Positions 2,570 to 19,640 of a stretch of DNA of 25,025 nt are shown in pieces; positions within the stretch are counted from its first letter, which is position 1, and each line of letters opens with the position of its first letter. Origin of the DNA: Bacilli bacterium. GTDB taxonomy: Bacteria > Bacillota_I > Bacilli_A > RF39 > UBA660. The position numbers were made by a program, and so were the translations under genes. The notes under the pieces are model-generated. The model searched no databases and had not been told where the DNA came from. It saw only the letters and a program-made list of their open reading frames with translations. The stretch lies in the NCBI GenBank assembly GCA_028708005.1, contig JAQVZV010000001.1:1-25025 (forward strand), in the 5' to 3' direction.

Positions 2570-3442
2570 TTATATCAGCATCTTATATGGCTTTGCTTTT
2601 GTTACATCCTTATTATAAGTCTGATAAATTGCTATTAACTCACCATCGGGATTAATTATCTTTATCATATTGTCATCTAATGTTTTCTCAATAATAGATC
2701 CATTCCTTATATTTTTTTCTAAATCCTTATCAACAGAAATACTTTTTAAATTTGGTAACGCCTCATCTAATGTTAATAACTTATAATCACCTTTAGCAAC
2801 ATTATCCAATGAATAACAATCATTTATTGTAAAATATCCTTGTTTAGTTCTCCTCAAATCAGACATACATGTAGGATAACCCAATTTTAAACCTATATCC
2901 CTAATTAAACTACGTATGTATGTCCCCTTTGATACAGAACACTTAATCTTAAAGATAATTTTGCCACCAATATCTTCTAAGTCTCCTATCAAAGATAAAT
3001 CATATATTTCTACTTCTCTTTTGGGCAATTCAATTGTTATATTATTTCTAGCATAGTCATAGAGCTTGCGCCCGCTCACTTTGACAGCACTATATTTGGG
3101 AACTTCTTGATTATAAATACCTATAAAACCCTTTAATACAGTTAAAACCTGTCCTTTAGATATATCTACATCATTAACTTCCTTCAAAACAGTTCCATCT
3201 ATATCAAGGGTATCAGTTCCTATTCCAACTGTAACCTCTGCTATATACTCCTTATTATAATTTGTGATAAGATCGCTTATTTTAGTAGCCTTACCTATAC
3301 AAAGTACTAAAACACCTGTAGCTAAAGGATCGAGAGTCCCGGTGTGACCTACGCGTTTTATGCCTATAATACGGCTAACCTCATTCACAACATCCCTACT
3401 TGTTATTCCTTTAGGCTTATCAACGACAATAATTCCATTCAT
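2570..3442 (-). CDS. truB: tRNA pseudouridine(55) synthase
   Basis: VDKPKGITSRDVV, GHTGTLDPLATGVL (catalytic Asp) and CSVSKGTYIRSL motifs; located after rbfA. Confidence 0.97.
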   Translation of the reverse strand: MNGIIVVDKPKGITSRDVVNEVSRIIGIKRVGHTGTLDPLATGVLVLCIGKATKISDLITNYNKEYIAEVTVGIGTDTLDIDGTVLKEVNDVDISKGQVLTVLKGFIGIYNQEVPKYSAVKVSGRKLYDYARNNITIELPKREVEIYDLSLIGDLEDIGGKIIFKIKCSVSKGTYIRSLIRDIGLKLGYPTCMSDLRRTKQGYFTINDCYSLDNVAKGDYKLLTLDEALPNLKSISVDKDLEKNIRNGSIIEKTLDDNMIKIINPDGELIAIYQTYNKDVTKAKPYKMLI

Positions 3443-13586: not shown

Positions 13587-14060
13587 CTATTTAACTTTCA
13601 ATTCATCTATTTTATGAGATAACAACTTCCAGTTTTCATCATATTCAAAAAATCCATTTATTTTTTTACCTTCTAAAGCGTAATGTAGCCAATACTTATA
13701 ATCCTCAAACATTTGGTCATATGGTATCTTATCCAAATCAAACCAATATGGTTTCATCTCTTCACTTTCTTGAGGCTCACCGATCCAATTAGTGGAGACA
13801 AATAAATGAAATAGTACATTTGCTTTGGTGCCTTTATAAAATTCTACAAACTCCATTACCCCGACTTTACTATAGTCTGTTGGAGTCACCAATATTTCTT
13901 CTTGAGTTTCTCTAATCATTGCCATTTCCGGTGTTTCATCCGCTTCTAATTTACCACCAACACCATTAAATTTGCCTTCACCAAATCCTTGCTTTTTCAT
14001 AGCAAGCATTACTTGATTGTCTTTTCTTAATAGTAGTAAAGTAGTTTCAATTCTATTCAT
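13587..14060 (-). CDS. Nudix hydrolase, MutT/MTH1 (8-oxo-dGTPase)-like
   Basis: KKQGFGEGKFNGVGGKLE and Nudix box GKLEADETPEMAMIRETQEE; ESEEMKPYWF and PYDQMF typical of the MTH1-like family; GGAGG RBS. Confidence 0.85.
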   Translation of the reverse strand: MNRIETTLLLLRKDNQVMLAMKKQGFGEGKFNGVGGKLEADETPEMAMIRETQEEILVTPTDYSKVGVMEFVEFYKGTKANVLFHLFVSTNWIGEPQESEEMKPYWFDLDKIPYDQMFEDYKYWLHYALEGKKINGFFEYDENWKLLSHKIDELKVK

Positions 14061-14171
14061 CTTTACCTCCGACTTTAAGTTTACATATTTAAATATATTG
14101 CTACCACAAGCATATCATAATAATATTTAAAAACAAAGGTCCATAAATCTTTATATTTATGAATATAACAT

Positions 14172-14212
14172 AAAAATAGATTGCTTCTGAGATTGAAGCA
14201 ATCTATTGTTTT
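14172..14212. terminator. Intrinsic terminator after tRNA-Ala
   Basis: AATAGATTGCTTC-TGAGATT-GAAGCAATCTATT perfect 13-bp stem, T tracts on both sides. Confidence 0.8.
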
Positions 14213-14221
14213 TCTAACATC

Positions 14222-14298
14222 TGGTGGAGAATAAGGGATTCGAACCCTTGACCCCCTGCTTGCAAAACAGGTGCTCTAGCCAGCTGAGCTAATTCCCC
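14222..14298 (-). tRNA. tRNA-Ala(TGC)
   Basis: GGGGAATTAGCTCAGCTGGCTAGAGCACCTGTTTTGCAAGCAGGGGGTCAAGGGTTCGAATCCCTTATTCTCCACCA: full cloverleaf, G3:U70 Ala identity pair, TGC anticodon, encoded CCA. Confidence 0.97.
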
Positions 14299-14363
14299 AA
14301 ATATGAAAAGGTTAAGTAGGCTCAAAACCTTCTCTTCACCGCAACTTTAATAGTTGCGTTATG

Positions 14364-14392
14364 ATTATAACATAATAAAATTGAAAAAACAA
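14364..14392 (-). promoter_or_regulatory. sigmaA promoter of tRNA-Ala
   Basis: TTGTTT-17 bp-TATAAT with extended TG (TGtTATAAT), minus strand, just outside the IS target duplication. Confidence 0.65.
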
Positions 14393-14403
14393 CATCATTT
14401 TTA

Positions 14404-14418
14404 ATTATCTTTACTTAA
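14404..14418. repeat. Left target-site duplication (15 bp)
   Basis: ATTATCTTTACTTAA is identical to 17310-17324 and abuts the IS left end. Confidence 0.92.
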
Positions 14419-14450
14419 CGTTAGTTTTTATTTGGAATTCCGTTTTAATG

Positions 14451-14479
14451 TAGAAAACTGAAATAAGTGTGGTTATAAT
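14451..14479 (+). promoter_or_regulatory. Resident transposase promoter (copy 2 at 15904-15932)
   Basis: TAGAAA-17 bp-TATAAT, followed by an AAGGAGG RBS. Confidence 0.6.
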
Positions 14480-14518
14480 AAGATTTATGTTTCTTTGCCA
14501 TGAAGGAGGATAAAAAAA

Positions 14519-15649
14519 ATGAAGGAATGGAAACATTTATCAATAGATCAAAGAAAAGTTATTTCCTCAGGAATATCTCATAATTATAAATTAAAAAATA
14601 TTGGTGAAGCTTTAGGTTTTGATCCAACGAGCATTTCAAAAGAAGTTAAAAGAAATAGAATTGCTATTACTGTTGGACTAAATATAAATAATTGTAAAAG
14701 AGTTAATAGGTGGCCTTATGTTTGTTCTGGATGTAATAAAAGATATAATAATTGTCCATTTACTAAGTATAAATACGATGCACAGTCCGCACAAAGGAAA
14801 GCTGATGTCAATTTAATTAACTCTAGAAAAGGTTTAGATATTGACTCTGATACTTTTAAAAAGTTAGATGAAACTATTAAAGAAGGTATTGAAAACAAGA
14901 AATCTCTTTATCAAATAAAAATAGAAAACAAAGATAATATTGATAAATCTATAACTACATTATATAGATATGTAAATAATGGTTATTTAACTACTAAAAG
15001 AATGGATTTACCTTATGCAGTTACTTATAAAAAAAGGAAGCACAATAAAAAGTATGAATACTCCGAAAATAACAATATTGACAGGAGTGGTCATACTTAT
15101 CTTGATTATCTGGCTTATTTACATAAGCATCCAGGAATCTACGTCTGGCAACTAGATTTCCTTGGGTCTATAAAGACAGATAACAATAATATTCTATCAT
15201 TTATGTTGCCTAATTTGCAATTTATTATTATAGATTTGATAAAAAGTCCAAATTCAGAAAAAGTAGTTTCTTTTTTTGACAATCTTGAAGAAAGAATTGG
15301 AATCGATGCATTTATAGAATTAATCCCAGTTATTTTAACAGATAGAGATCCTAACTTTACAGATATTAATGGGATTTGTTTTTCAAAAGCCACTGGTGAA
15401 GAAAGATGTAAGTTATTTTTCTGTGATCCATATGTATCTAATCAAAAACCAAATGTAGAAAATGTTAATAAACAGCTTAGATTATTTTTCCAAAAGGGAA
15501 AAACAATAGATAAATATCAAAAAAAAGATATTAAAAACATAAATCAAACACTACTTAATAGACCATTAAAATCTTTAGATGGAAATACTTCAAAAGAAGC
15601 ATTTATTAAAGTATTTGACGAGGAATTATTTAGTAAATTGTTTAATTAA
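14519..15649 (+). CDS. IS30-family transposase (376 aa)
   Basis: N-terminal KHLSIDQR...SISKEVKRN HTH; DDE triad in WQLD, ILTD and QKPNVENVNKQLR (IS30 signature QKxxxExxNxxxR). Confidence 0.92.
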   Translation: MKEWKHLSIDQRKVISSGISHNYKLKNIGEALGFDPTSISKEVKRNRIAITVGLNINNCKRVNRWPYVCSGCNKRYNNCPFTKYKYDAQSAQRKADVNLINSRKGLDIDSDTFKKLDETIKEGIENKKSLYQIKIENKDNIDKSITTLYRYVNNGYLTTKRMDLPYAVTYKKRKHNKKYEYSENNNIDRSGHTYLDYLAYLHKHPGIYVWQLDFLGSIKTDNNNILSFMLPNLQFIIIDLIKSPNSEKVVSFFDNLEERIGIDAFIELIPVILTDRDPNFTDINGICFSKATGEERCKLFFCDPYVSNQKPNVENVNKQLRLFFQKGKTIDKYQKKDIKNINQTLLNRPLKSLDGNTSKEAFIKVFDEELFSKLFN

Positions 15650-15856
15650 TTAAACAATTTGTTGGCAGAGAAACAAAGTACCAAAACGGAAGTAAGTTTA
15701 AAAAACGGACTTTAGTCTGTTATTTTAGCGTGCGATGATATTAAAACTTTTATATAAATTAAAGGACTTATTTCCGTTTTTGTTATACTTTTTCGGAAAT
15801 AAGTCTGATATTCTAATATTTTTATTGAAAAACTGCATTTACTCTAAAAATTTACG

Positions 15857-15871
15857 CATTTTTTTAGGAAC
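15857..15871. other. 15-bp IRR-IRL junction spacer CATTTTTTTAGGAAC
   Basis: Only sequence between the two IS copies; same length as the TSD but a different sequence. Confidence 0.85.
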
Positions 15872-17309
15872 CGTTAGTTTTTATTTGGAATTCCGTTTTA
15901 ATGTAGAAAACTGAAATAAGTGTGGTTATAATAAGATTTATGTTTCTTTGCCATGAAGGAGGATAAAAAAAATGAAGGAATGGAAACATTTATCAATAGA
16001 TCAAAGAAAAGTTATTTCCTCAGGAATATCTCATAATTATAAATTAAAAAATATTGGTGAAGCTTTAGGTTTTGATCCAACGAGCATTTCAAAAGAAGTT
16101 AAAAGAAATAGAATTGCTATTACTGTTGGACTAAATATAAATAATTGTAAAAGAGTTAATAGGTGGCCTTATGTTTGTTCTGGATGTAATAAAAGATATA
16201 ATAATTGTCCATTTACTAAGTATAAATACGATGCACAGTCCGCACAAAGGAAAGCTGATGTCAATTTAATTAACTCTAGAAAAGGTTTAGATATTGACTC
16301 TGATACTTTTAAAAAGTTAGATGAAACTATTAAAGAAGGTATTGAAAACAAGAAATCTCTTTATCAAATAAAAATAGAAAACAAAGATAATATTGATAAA
16401 TCTATAACTACATTATATAGATATGTAAATAATGGTTATTTAACTACTAAAAGAATGGATTTACCTTATGCAGTTACTTATAAAAAAAGGAAGCACAATA
16501 AAAAGTATGAATACTCCGAAAATAACAATATTGACAGGAGTGGTCATACTTATCTTGATTATCTGGCTTATTTACATAAGCATCCAGGAATCTACGTCTG
16601 GCAACTAGATTTCCTTGGGTCTATAAAGACAGATAACAATAATATTCTATCATTTATGTTGCCTAATTTGCAATTTATTATTATAGATTTGATAAAAAGT
16701 CCAAATTCAGAAAAAGTAGTTTCTTTTTTTGACAATCTTGAAGAAAGAATTGGAATCGATGCATTTATAGAATTAATCCCAGTTATTTTAACAGATAGAG
16801 ATCCTAACTTTACAGATATTAATGGGATTTGTTTTTCAAAAGCCACTGGTGAAGAAAGATGTAAGTTATTTTTCTGTGATCCATATGTATCTAATCAAAA
16901 ACCAAATGTAGAAAATGTTAATAAACAGCTTAGATTATTTTTCCAAAAGGGAAAAACAATAGATAAATATCAAAAAAAAGATATTAAAAACATAAATCAA
17001 ACACTACTTAATAGACCATTAAAATCTTTAGATGGAAATACTTCAAAAGAAGCATTTATTAAAGTATTTGACGAGGAATTATTTAGTAAATTGTTTAATT
17101 AATTAAACAATTTGTTGGCAGAGAAACAAAGTACCAAAACGGAAGTAAGTTTAAAAAACGGACTTTAGTCTGTTATTTTAGCGTGCGATGATATTAAAAC
17201 TTTTATATAAATTAAAGGACTTATTTCCGTTTTTGTTATACTTTTTCGGAAATAAGTCTGATATTCTAATATTTTTATTGAAAAACTGCATTTACTCTAA
17301 AAATTTACG
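15872..17309 (+). mobile_element. IS30-family insertion sequence, copy 2 (1438 bp)
   Basis: Appears identical to copy 1 (same protein; non-coding ends matched by eye). Confidence 0.9.
15972..17102 (+). CDS. IS30-family transposase (376 aa), identical to copy 1
   Basis: Same translation as 14519-15649. Confidence 0.9.
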   Translation: MKEWKHLSIDQRKVISSGISHNYKLKNIGEALGFDPTSISKEVKRNRIAITVGLNINNCKRVNRWPYVCSGCNKRYNNCPFTKYKYDAQSAQRKADVNLINSRKGLDIDSDTFKKLDETIKEGIENKKSLYQIKIENKDNIDKSITTLYRYVNNGYLTTKRMDLPYAVTYKKRKHNKKYEYSENNNIDRSGHTYLDYLAYLHKHPGIYVWQLDFLGSIKTDNNNILSFMLPNLQFIIIDLIKSPNSEKVVSFFDNLEERIGIDAFIELIPVILTDRDPNFTDINGICFSKATGEERCKLFFCDPYVSNQKPNVENVNKQLRLFFQKGKTIDKYQKKDIKNINQTLLNRPLKSLDGNTSKEAFIKVFDEELFSKLFN

Positions 17310-19640
17310 ATTATCTTTACTTAAATCAAGTGCTCTGCAAACATCTTTATATTCATTTACGAAAATGAATTCAAGATCTTCTTTAATTTCCATAGGAATT
17401 TCATCTAAATCCCTCTTGTTCTTACTAGGAATAATTATTTTTTCTAAACCGCTTCGATGAGCTCCCATAGCTTTTTCTTTTAATCCACCTATCGGTAATA
17501 CGTGCCCTTGCAATGTTATTTCGCCTGTCATGCCTACTTTATGATTAATTGGCTTATTCATGAAGGCGCTCAATAATGCAGTTGTCAATGCTATTCCGGC
17601 ACTAGGGCCATCTTTAGGAATAGCGCCTTCTGGTAAATGTATGTGAATATCGTTATTCTCAAGTAATTTATAATCAATTCCAAACTCATCATAATGACTC
17701 TTTATATAACTTATTGCAATATTAGCTGATTCTTTTATGACCTCACCTAACGAACCTGTTAAAACCAAGTTGCCTTTGCCCTTATAGAAAGTCACTTCTA
17801 TTGGTAAGATGTCACCACCAAATTGGGTATATGCTAAACCAACAGCTATTCCAATCTTATCAGCTTCTTCTTTTTCAGTATAAAAGTACTTTTGCTTTCC
17901 TAAATATGATTCTAGATTTTCCACATCTATCTTGTATCTTTTTTTCTTCTTCTCATTTGAGACAATATCGGTTACAGCCTTGCGACATATTGTCGCAATT
18001 AAACGTTCTATCTCCCTTACACCAGCTTCTTTAGTATAATGACTAATCATTTTTTTAATTGTCTCATCACTTATTTGGATGCTGCTTTTACCAAGTCCGT
18101 GATTCTCAAGTTCTTTAGGTAATATGTGTTTCTTTACAATATCTAATTTTTCATATTCAGTATAACCAGATAATTCTATTACTTCCAAACGATCTCTTAA
18201 AGGCTCTGGGATATTTGATAAATAATTAGCTGTTAAGATGAATAATATTTGTGATAAATCGTATTCTTCCTCCAAGTAATTATCATAGAAGGTTTGATTT
18301 TGTTCTTGATCAAGCACTTCTAATAAAGCACTAGCAGGGTCCCCCTTATAATCCTTTGTCATTTTATCTATTTCATCAATTAAGAATAAGGGATTTGAAC
18401 TACCCGCCTTTTTAATGCCTGATATAATACGCCCAGGATTAGCCCCTATATAAGTACGTCTGTGTCCAATAATTTCAGCTTCATCATTAACACCACCAAC
18501 TGATATTTTAACAAAGTTGCGTTTCATGCTGTTGGCAATACTTTTCGCTAAAGATGTTTTCCCAACACCTGGCGGCCCCACAAGACATATTATAGGTGAT
18601 TTAACGTCCTGCTTCATTTGTCTAACAGCCAAGAATTCAATTATACGATCCTTCACTTTATCTAAACCGTAATGTGATGCATCTAACACTTTTCTTGTTT
18701 GAATTAAATTAGTATTATCAACTGTCGTTTTATTCCACGGCAGATCCAACAACCAATCAATATAGTTTCTAACAGTACTTATTTCTGGTGAATTAGTAGA
18801 TAATAATTCATACTTTTTCACTTCTTGATTAATTCTATTTATAATTCTAGCAGGATATCTATCCTCATCAATTTTGCTCTTGATTTGGTCAATATCATTA
18901 TCTTTTAAATCTACATCACCAAGTTCTTCCTTTATTACACGTAGTTTTTCTCGCAAAATAAACTCCCTTTGTGTTGCGTCTAATTGTTTTTTTACTTCTG
19001 TATCTATTTTTTCTTCTAATTCTATCAGTTGTTTTTCTTTTTTAATATCCTCTAAGAGCATTAAAAGTCGTGTGTAAGGATTAACTGTCTTCATATATTC
19101 TATTTTGCGTTCATATGGTACCGGTATATAAGTTGCAATTATATCTGTAGCTTTAGCTATGCTTTTGATTTCTGCCATTTCTGCTATAATTCCATTACTA
19201 AGATCATGACGAGTTTCAATATAATCTTCAAACTCTTTTATTAATTTACGCATCAATATTATTTCATCTTTTGGAGTAATAGCAAATTGAGTAGTATTAC
19301 CTACTGTCCCTTCTAATATTTTGGGATTTTCTTCGCGATTGCTATAACCTTGAACAGATACCCTATTCAATCCCACAATTATAGCTCTTGTAATTCCGTT
19401 ATGAAGTTCCATCTTTAATTTTATCTTACCCATAATAGCGATTTTAGGCAATTGAGCTACATTGACAGATTCTTCTAAAGGATTGGTGAGTGGAACAATT
19501 AAAACATTGCTATCATGCATTTTTTCTGCCAATTCAAATGTATCTTTATCTATATCACTATTTACTTCTAATCTTATTTCTGAATACGGTAATAATACTA
19601 CACCCCTAAGTAGGATTACTGGTAAAGTTGTATTGACCAT
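17292..19640 (-). CDS. lon: ATP-dependent protease La (Lon), C-terminus extended by IS sequence
   Basis: LPVILLR N-domain, Walker A GPPGVGKTS, LIDEIDK, catalytic PKDGPSAG; ATG 19640 with GGAGG RBS; last 5 residues RKFLE and the stop lie inside the IS. Confidence 0.97.
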   Translation of the reverse strand: MVNTTLPVILLRGVVLLPYSEIRLEVNSDIDKDTFELAEKMHDSNVLIVPLTNPLEESVNVAQLPKIAIMGKIKLKMELHNGITRAIIVGLNRVSVQGYSNREENPKILEGTVGNTTQFAITPKDEIILMRKLIKEFEDYIETRHDLSNGIIAEMAEIKSIAKATDIIATYIPVPYERKIEYMKTVNPYTRLLMLLEDIKKEKQLIELEEKIDTEVKKQLDATQREFILREKLRVIKEELGDVDLKDNDIDQIKSKIDEDRYPARIINRINQEVKKYELLSTNSPEISTVRNYIDWLLDLPWNKTTVDNTNLIQTRKVLDASHYGLDKVKDRIIEFLAVRQMKQDVKSPIICLVGPPGVGKTSLAKSIANSMKRNFVKISVGGVNDEAEIIGHRRTYIGANPGRIISGIKKAGSSNPLFLIDEIDKMTKDYKGDPASALLEVLDQEQNQTFYDNYLEEEYDLSQILFILTANYLSNIPEPLRDRLEVIELSGYTEYEKLDIVKKHILPKELENHGLGKSSIQISDETIKKMISHYTKEAGVREIERLIATICRKAVTDIVSNEKKKKRYKIDVENLESYLGKQKYFYTEKEEADKIGIAVGLAYTQFGGDILPIEVTFYKGKGNLVLTGSLGEVIKESANIAISYIKSHYDEFGIDYKLLENNDIHIHLPEGAIPKDGPSAGIALTTALLSAFMNKPINHKVGMTGEITLQGHVLPIGGLKEKAMGAHRSGLEKIIIPSKNKRDLDEIPMEIKEDLEFIFVNEYKDVCRALDLSKDNRKFLE
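17310..17324. repeat. Right target-site duplication (15 bp)
   Basis: ATTATCTTTACTTAA is identical to 14404-14418; on the minus strand it encodes the last five native Lon residues LSKDN. Confidence 0.92.

Follow-up and report, generated by a model that had tools for sequence, protein, structure and literature searches.

The window, by which we mean the whole 25,025-nucleotide stretch of DNA analysed, carries at the extreme 3′ end of a lon protease gene two copies of an insertion sequence (IS) arranged head to tail (Table 1). The window sequence bears out exactly the layout described in an earlier note, TSD(15)-IS(1438)-spacer(15)-IS(1438)-TSD(15), and we refer to the target duplication as X and to the spacer as S. 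The two copies are identical at 1438 of 1438 positions and are the sole long internal repeat of the 831-kb assembly. S is unique in the assembly and resembles neither X nor either flank of the insertion site, its 7 of 15 positions in common with X being ordinary at 30% GC. The original lon stop codon (14401-14403) lies immediately outside the left X, and the insertion extends Lon by five codons taken from the IS end, giving the C-terminus ...LSKDN-RKFLE followed by a stop. Of 16 sites, lon alone conforms to a rule in which the IS takes up the terminal five codons of a gene, and such a rule is not supported.

Table 1. Features of the tandem IS pair and its surroundings (positions in the window)
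Feature	Position	Strand	Remarks
tRNA-Ala (TGC)	14222..14298	-	Left neighbour of the insertion; intact
Target duplication X, left copy, ATTATCTTTACTTAA	14404..14418		15 bp; on the minus strand, the final five sense codons of lon (LSKDN)
IS copy 1	14419..15856	+	1438 bp, from CGTTAG... to ...TTTACG; ends matched by the G014 copies and L037
Transposase gene, copy 1	14519..15649	+	376 aa; N-terminal HTH_38, IS30-type catalytic core
Spacer S, CATTTTTTTAGGAAC	15857..15871		15 bp; separates the right end of copy 1 from the left end of copy 2
IS copy 2	15872..17309	+	Same sequence as copy 1
Transposase gene, copy 2	15972..17102	+	
Target duplication X, right copy	17310..17324		The sibling contig L134 and runs X2 and X3 show the IS end passing through X into the right flank
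lon protease gene	17292..19640	-	Pfam Lon domains; 782 aa (777 aa where the site is empty)

Judged from its sequence, the element is a divergent IS30-family IS, in keeping with the IS30-like assignment made previously. Its transposase matches Pfam HTH_38 (PF13936) over residues 4-46 (E 3.1e-10, 40.1 bits against a cut-off of 27), and the NCBIfam IS30 model NF033563 aligns over positions 13-267 of 267 (E 4.9e-21) with 75.6 bits, narrowly missing the curated cut-off of 80. There was no match to another transposase family, and Pfam rve was not detected even at E values up to 5. The residues D213 (in WQLDF), D275/D277 (in TDRD) and E314 (in PNVEN), which we take to be the candidate catalytic triad on the strength of the IS30 motifs rather than a structure, are unchanged across 31 relatives of 56-82% identity. 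The length of 1438 bp and the single 376-aa open reading frame also fit the family, a class of ~1-1.5 kb with terminal inverted repeats; the ends, CGTTAGTTTTTA... and ...TAAAAATTTACG, form imperfect inverted repeats (~19/28 by hand alignment).

Copies of this IS with at least 99.7% identity occur in other organisms and in 13 studies, and the near-identity of the IS across genera indicates that transfer was recent. One genome from a different genus of the same family (G014) has three copies, with ends identical across the 54-55 nt present at contig ends and with duplications of 15, 14 and 15 bp, while an ENA contig (L037) has one copy with a 15-bp duplication; S is absent from these insertions. 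Together with ~14 insertions of relatives, these four further insertions of the same IS back both the ends and a duplication of 14-16 bp. Over ~19 insertions of the IS and its relatives the duplication thus differs from the 2-3 bp typical of the IS30 family, and the 15-bp duplication at lon is genuine and typical of its clade. We considered S as a part of the element (a 1453-bp unit) and rejected this, as the four same-IS insertions and the ~14 from relatives all have the same end points and lack S. The case of a 15-mer shared by all copies, which the earlier note had named as fatal to its reading, does not apply, and S is both foreign to the site and outside the element.

In other samples the same site is found as a monomer or empty (landfill runs X2 and X3 and contig L135). 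L135, an independent 19.5-kb Logan contig that is 99.64% identical over 7.1 kb, reads from the left flank through one X into the right flank, and the empty site with a single X also occurs in run X3. The monomer state was found in at least two studies, and a strain with a 99.74% identical flank (0.26% diverged) carries the same insertion. As the monomer is found elsewhere and the same insertion in a related strain, with the joint in one run only, the insertion appears to be older than the joint. A sibling k=127 assembly of the occupied site stops 126 nt into the IS (contig L134), with no pass-through.

Words across the joint occur in landfill run X1 only. In Logan, a contig equal to that of X1 in flank and in length (1979 nt) is listed under SRR22315502. 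A Logan k=31 assembly of X1, independent of the one that yielded the genome, contains a 46-nt contig over 15856-15901 (the final base of the IS, followed by S and the left end), confirming the connection of S to the left IS end. The contig of the IS right end halts exactly at 15856 in X1 and continues into X in X2. The joint contig would have measured 75 nt if unbranched, and 1/4 sampled joint words is absent. Only contigs, not raw reads, were aligned to the site, and contig depths are poor measures; on this rough scale the depths in X1 are 7.0 (joint contig), 6.1 (left chromosomal junction) and 6.5-8.5 (flank), consistent with one joint per occupied chromosome. The joint therefore does not show the rarity relative to chromosomal copies that is the mark of a minicircle. 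At near-chromosomal depth it resembles a stable structure more than it does a rare intermediate, and to call the pair a “snapshot of a transposon circle”, as had been done, is an overstatement. The IS body in X1 has a depth of 17-25, ~three times that of the flank and above what the known junctions explain, indicating that other copies exist in the sample.

How the contig was built bears on all of this. The genome was assembled from short reads at k=127, with 100-N scaffold gaps, probably by metaSPAdes. For the contig to be written at k=127 there must be 127-mers that start in the right end, cross S and finish in the left end; it is likely that no single read or pair spans the 1438 identical bases, and that the dimer reflects a path looped through the graph and not a molecule that was observed, with IS copy 2 possibly being one short-read graph edge walked twice. 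Since a twice-walked edge gives both the identity of the copies and their tandem placement, these are not independent observations. SPAdes walks a simple loop according to coverage, so that the agreement between joint and junction depths is partly a selection effect. A false join through a 15-nt overlap of S-flanked junctions was considered and rejected, given that k is 127 and that the Logan k=31 assembly independently has S followed by the left IS end.

The reading we tentatively favour, to which we give a little under an even chance, is a real chromosomal dimer, formed when a circle recombined with the resident copy. A circle consisting of the IS and 15 bp of donor flank would be the expected product of IS30-type copy-out, the spacer having the length of the target duplication. 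Such a circle could meet the resident copy at the lon end by ordinary homologous recombination (Campbell-type), giving X-IS-S-IS-X; the dimer would then have arisen in the X1 population, with its inner ends joined via 15 bp from another insertion site. The monomer and the empty site found elsewhere fit the earlier proposal that a circle joined the resident copy; its other elements, co-location on one molecule and a donor of S, did not find such support. We infer the presence of the joint at the lon site on the same molecule, the circle as the incoming partner, and the origin of S. Tandem IS30-type dimers are reported to be unstable. The presence of one at ~100% in a natural population would be unexpected, which counts against a dimer.

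Copy-out should also leave a donor in the same genome, yet the searches turned up no copy with S beside it. Within this genome S has no match adjoining the IS even when 2 mismatches are tolerated; in 400 family genomes its 6 matches compare with 4 for the reversed control, which is the chance level. Neither S with the left end, nor the right end with S, nor the exact joint with any 0-30-nt spacer had a match in the genome_contigs or metagenome_contigs collections; a degenerate joint pattern had none in viral contigs, and none of the contig ends of this genome carries IS ends. Another copy flanked by S, for which the earlier note had proposed a search, was accordingly not found in any of the sets searched (the genome, the family genomes and both public collections). 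S equals the final five codons of argS in two other genera, with the stop codon just outside. The argS of this genome was considered as donor and rejected: it ends in ...APNEM, with the reverse complement CATTTCATTTGGGGC, and differs from S. We regard as improbable, and put forward as speculation, that S marks, like a barcode, a donor site belonging to a different genome, from which a circle of another family member entered and recombined into the resident IS; the argS match in two other genera and the near-identity of the IS across genera are consistent with this. Were it true, IS circles would be horizontally transferable units, with tandem joints recording their last residence, and the 15-bp-spaced geometry of joined ends would be established for an IS30-type transpososome.

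The main competitor to a real dimer, which we consider a serious possibility if a less probable one, is that a single IS lies at lon and that the assembler stitched in a joint from elsewhere, be it from free circles, or from a tandem or a re-insertion that lies at a different locus or in some other organism with the same IS. The artefact from joint reads that the earlier note had offered as its alternative stays alive in this form, since k=127 short reads cannot span the IS. A short-read graph at k=127 with 100-N gaps is the setting in which such a loop would form, and complete identity of the copies is what a twice-used edge requires. Sources for the joint are at hand in the copies of this IS in other organisms and 13 studies, including three in G014, and in the threefold depth of the IS body in X1; the Logan contig, at only 46 nt, suggests that S is also entered from a second sequence context, and the sibling assembly breaks in the manner of a monomer. 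On the other hand, free circles as deep as the chromosome would be extraordinary. In SPAdes, a tandem at another locus should add its own flank edges, which would leave no simple loop to traverse. A tandem elsewhere should therefore have broken the contig, as happened in the sibling assembly. This genome has no contig end with IS ends. Also weighing against a loop are the lack of an S-flanked junction in any collection searched and the match of the joint depth to the junction depth of the lon locus.

Transposition of the pair as a unit, in which an IS-S-IS dimer (S being the donor duplication) or a dimeric circle moved into the lon end and the monomers are later collapses, would account for both the foreign spacer and the perfect 15-bp duplication around the whole pair. 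Arrival by gene transfer would explain the absence of a donor from the genome, and is in line with the recent transfer of the IS across genera; moreover, ISApl1 dimers are transposition intermediates (PMC6349718). Against this stands the distribution of states: with the monomer in at least two studies and in the 0.26%-diverged strain, and the joint in one run, the dimer looks derived. In an IS30-type dimer, furthermore, the reactive part is reported to be the inner joint and not the outer ends that would have had to act here, and we consider such a move unlikely. IS30 targets its own ends, and a second copy could in principle have inserted beside the resident one, by end-targeting or by re-use of the regenerated target, leaving the 15-bp gap as a target duplication; a joint on contig C87 of genome G417 may be such a case. 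This route predicts X-IS-X-IS-X, but the observed spacer is not X and differs from it at 8 of 15 positions, a contradiction that leaves it scarcely credible.

We therefore view the tandem pair as a plausible but unproven case of a known transposition intermediate, and as a variant that departs only modestly from known IS30 biology. The site-foreign spacer of a real dimer would be a natural record of recombination between a circle and a resident copy, a rarely documented route to tandem IS pairs. Because a monomer plus a joint elsewhere yields the same graph, tandem IS pairs in short-read metagenome bins should not be taken at face value.

Comparable joints were found for two related IS in other assemblies, with 15 bp between right end and left end, and one related joint lies in a MEGAHIT contig that runs into non-IS DNA; none of 58 related loci had tandem copies. 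PMC6349718 (citing Olasz 1993 and Kiss & Olasz 1999) and PMC7780238 describe joined ends, circles and tandem dimers for IS30-family elements, with the spacer taken from donor flank. The (IS30)2 dimers and the circles of IS30 and ISApl1 belong to the same family as the present element and share with it head-to-tail joined ends, a spacer derived from outside the element and a spacer length equal to that of the duplication, although their spacer is 2 bp, compared to 15 bp here. In an (IS30)2 dimer formed between sister copies the spacer would come from the resident flank, while S is foreign to its site, and the present dimer is a putative one, known from a contig only. A strong junction promoter created by the joined ends would also be expected of an (IS30)2 dimer. 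Here a consensus scan of 15700-16000, which is weak evidence, showed none across the joint, the only promoter being a resident one within the left end (TAGAAA-17-TATAAT, 15904-15932).

Circle junctions of the IS256 and IS3 type (ISCth4, IS911 and IS2; PMC7780238, PMC3299598) likewise have a spacer from donor flank and serve as the integration substrate, with tandems mimicking the circle junction. Their transposases, however, belong to other families, and their spacers, at 1-8 bp, often fall short of the duplication length. Closer in duplication length are IS1630 of Mycoplasma fermentans (Calcutt 1999, in PMC7648426) and ISMhom-1 of M. hominis, also IS30-type elements with long duplications in small low-GC genomes of Bacilli/Tenericutes. 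PMC7648426 presents long duplications as a feature of a minority of the IS30 family, IS1630 and ISMhom-1 among them (6-15 bp for ISMhom-1), and describes insertions at gene 3′ ends with the frame kept, as at lon. In a comparison of duplications and targets, their duplication is widely variable whereas ours is tight (14-16 bp over ~19 insertions), and our targets are not obvious inverted repeats. We found no report of joined-end spacers for IS1630 or ISMhom-1. The IS30-family systems studied so far (IS30, ISApl1) combine a 2-bp joint with a 2-bp duplication, and here three independent 15-bp joints accompany duplications of 14-16 bp, which suggests that, within a single transposase family, the distance between the joined ends and the offset of the staggered target cut vary together.

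The window carries two identical IS copies, arranged head to tail, separated by a 15-bp spacer (S) and enclosed by a 15-bp target duplication (X). Coordinates and copy identity read from the window reproduce exactly the TSD(15)-IS(1438)-spacer(15)-IS(1438)-TSD(15) layout claimed in the earlier note. The spacer also equals the duplication in length while differing from it in sequence, as had been stated; a direct comparison finds agreement at 7/15 positions. The pair is the sole long internal repeat of its source assembly (831 kb, 140 contigs, 30% GC).

Layout of the tandem IS pair in the window, and matches to its spacer in other genomes
Feature	Position	Sequence or remark
Target duplication X, left copy	14404-14418	ATTATCTTTACTTAA
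IS copy 1	14419-15856	1438 bp
Spacer S	15857-15871	CATTTTTTTAGGAAC
IS copy 2	15872-17309	1438/1438 identical to copy 1
Target duplication X, right copy	17310-17324	X repeated
argS matches to S	L045, L048 (loci in other genomes), 1501-1515 of each	S-forward orientation

Each IS copy contains one 376-aa ORF, with an N-terminal HTH_38 domain (Pfam). The NCBIfam IS30 transposase model matches over nearly its full length (E 4.9e-21), scoring 75.6 bits against a curated cut-off of 80, and NCBIfam and Pfam profile searches matched the protein to no other transposase family and did not detect Pfam rve. In an alignment with 30-31 relatives (56-82% identity), D213 (WQLDF), D275/D277 (TDRD) and E314 (PNVEN) are invariant, and on the basis of IS30 motifs we take these to be the candidate DDE triad. 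The element is a divergent IS30-family IS of uncultured small-genome Bacilli/Tenericutes-like bacteria (hosts according to record titles), and a new long-duplication member of that family. Two cysteine groups encoded by the transposase gene (14519-15649) are likewise invariant in 31 relatives: C59, C69, C72 and C79 (residues 59-79), which follow the HTH and precede the catalytic core, and C287, C297 and C302 (residues 287-302); they may form metal-binding clusters, of a type that to our knowledge has not been described for IS30 transposases. In each copy, the end of the transposase gene, stop codon included, overlaps a perfect 26-nt palindrome, AAATTGTTTAATTAATTAAACAATTT (15635-15660 and 17088-17113).

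Other insertions define the ends of the element and its usual duplication. In G014, a genome from another genus of the same family, six contig ends bear IS termini, identical over the 54-55 nt present; joined in pairs, these make up three insertions, whose duplications measure 15, 14 and 15 bp. A further copy, 99.9% identical, is flanked by a 15-bp duplication in an ENA contig (L037), and related IS (65-82% protein identity) provide ~14 insertions with clean 14-16-bp duplications, beside which the conserved ends read CGTNNNTTTT... and ...AAAAATTTACG. S is absent next to the IS ends in all of these insertions, showing that S is not part of the element and that 15 bp is the normal duplication in this clade; an element end comprising S, which would recur in all copies, is thereby ruled out. 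Within the IS30 family, a minority of members are known to make long duplications, among them IS1630 and ISMhom-1 (6-15 bp), and ISMhom-1, like the window IS at lon, inserts at gene 3' ends (PMC7648426). The same IS, at 99.7-100% identity, occurs in G014 (three copies; L021-L026) and, across 13 studies, in metagenomes of landfill, sludge, wastewater and bioreactors (L037-L042), and was not found in two other species searched from the host's own genus. This distribution points to recent horizontal spread.

At the insertion site, lon is read from the minus strand and X supplies its final five sense codons; a tRNA-Ala is the left-hand neighbour. Insertion appends RKFLE to Lon, followed by a stop codon read from the IS end. 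An empty site with one X and a 777-aa Lon is present in a 19.5-kb Logan (k=31) contig from another run, SRR20818761 (L135; 99.64% identical over 7.1 kb). In run X3, from a different study, the empty site occurs alongside an IS|X right junction. That junction is present in run X2 as well, which shares its study with run X1, and an empty allele can be deduced there from where the contigs break. A sibling MAG contig (L134; JAQVMP010000018.1, GCA_028703555.1) has the same occupied site with a 99.74% identical flank, and ends 126 nt into the IS. The insertion at X is therefore real, polymorphic and older than some strain divergence: the lon site is a long-standing presence/absence polymorphism.

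A dimer formed in place, or an insertion beside the resident end, should leave the site's own flank as spacer, as the earlier note reasoned; since S is found instead of X, both a second insertion next to the first and dimerisation between sister copies are rejected, and by sequence S is foreign to the lon site. The search for another S-flanked copy, which that note had proposed, came back empty: none was found in the source assembly or, on either side, in genome_contigs or metagenome_contigs, and in 400 family genomes S has 6 matches compared to 4 for a control, a chance level, none adjoining an IS. Two of the six are orthologous, in two other genera (G134, G354), where S is the reverse complement of GTT CCT AAA AAA ATG, the last five argS codons (VPKKM) with TAA just outside; X is placed and oriented in the same way at lon. 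The host argS (G000:C66:5003-5020) ends ...APNEM in bases unlike S. We regard argS as a lead only for the source of S; the idea that the IS as a rule captures a gene's final five codons is unsupported.

A degenerate right end-N(0-30)-left end pattern scanned across all species genomes gave three chance matches lacking an IS, their spacers measuring 3, 7 and 11 nt, together with two genuine joints, each of exactly 15 bp, that belong to related IS. One is in G418:C86 (L112/L118, positions 1-1620), which SPAdes assembled at k=55 for a Tenericutes MAG from human gut; the contig opens with 55 nt of right end, followed by TATAATTTATTAATC, a full related IS and a right flank, CAATTTTGCTAATTA, unlike the spacer. 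This second foreign-spacer joint is again a path through a repeat and so is not decisive. The other lies in a MEGAHIT k=127 contig (G417:C87; L116, G417:C87:5000-8317, positions 3090-3318), and MEGAHIT is not known to pass twice through a repeat. Here non-IS DNA with unrelated ORFs leads into a ~70-nt solo right-end remnant, GACTTTCGTAGGATT and 138 nt of left end. Its spacer nearly matches GACTTTCGTAGAAT, which another insertion of this MAG (L122, G417:C37; L130, G417:C10) has as its 14-bp duplication, and it shares the motif GAYTTTCGTAGRAT, which occurs four times in that 1.1-Mb genome versus none for a control. The recurrence suggests a preferred, re-used target, and this joint is probably a re-insertion into such a regenerated target. 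All three joints in the clade, including that of the window, measure 15 bp, which speaks for a joint spacing that is fixed at the length of the duplication, by whichever route the joints arose.

Is the joint in the window real? Many contig ends of its assembly overlap by exactly 127 nt (e.g. C79/C98, C35/C75), others by 150-450 nt at ~99% identity, and two 100-N gaps occur. These features mark the bin as a strain-mixed, k=127 short-read assembly, probably from metaSPAdes. In a k=127 graph an edge through S can arise only if reads cross from right end through S to left end. Only one public run, the landfill metagenome X1, yielded words of the 75-nt joint (15827-15901), with 3/4 sampled words present. 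When Logan contigs from four runs (X1, X2, X9, X3) were placed on 13900-15901, one from X1 spanned 15856-15901, running from the final IS base across S and 30 nt into the left IS end; the X1 right-end contig stops exactly at 15856, marking a branch, while that of X2 continues into X, and no joint contig appeared in X2, X9 or X3. We are highly confident that the joint is real DNA in the X1 sample. Its contig measures 46 nt compared to 75 nt expected when unbranched, and 1/4 sampled words is missing; a second context may enter S there, such as a donor's left flank with a terminal G, or graph simplification may be responsible.

Whether the joint sits at lon is a separate matter. A short read or pair is unlikely to span 1438 identical bases, and left flank-IS-S-IS-right flank is one graph traversal. 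A monomer at the site and a separate IS-S cycle would yield an identical graph, and the assembler may have united them. SPAdes traverses a simple self-loop according to the loop/flank coverage ratio, provided that no more than two edges enter the IS edge and no more than two leave it; the sibling assembly, broken at the IS, is the outcome expected when this fails. In X1 the joint-specific contig has a depth of 7.0, versus 6.1 for the left junction contig and 6.5-8.5 for the flank (contig depths being rough). This match counts for a chromosomal dimer, though the loop rule itself selects in part for such agreement. So does the consideration that circles at one per chromosome would be extraordinary, and that a tandem at another locus should bring its own flank edges. 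Against a dimer here counts the IS body depth of 17-25 in X1, from which other IS copies must exist in the sample, as does the reported instability of IS30-type dimers.

On balance we lean slightly towards a true dimer at the lon site, all routes taken together, and consider a misplaced joint a serious but less probable explanation. For the dimer, the route proposed in the earlier note, in which a circle carrying S would have recombined into the resident copy, is put forward tentatively, at a little short of even odds overall; the joint, the foreign spacer and the 15-bp clade duplication speak for that interpretation, while the S-flanked donor it predicts was not found. Transposition of the pair into the site as one unit seems improbable.

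Circles and (IS)2 dimers are known from IS30 and ISApl1, where spacer and duplication are each 2 bp long (PMC6349718, PMC5821093). More generally, copy-out/paste-in elements copy their spacer from the DNA that flanks the recipient end (PMC7780238, PMC3299598). The window element works alike, although its spacer is 15 bp rather than 2 bp and foreign in origin, and a consensus scan found no junction promoter at its joint, unlike known joints. At most, the joint in the window represents a new variant of the joined-end intermediate.
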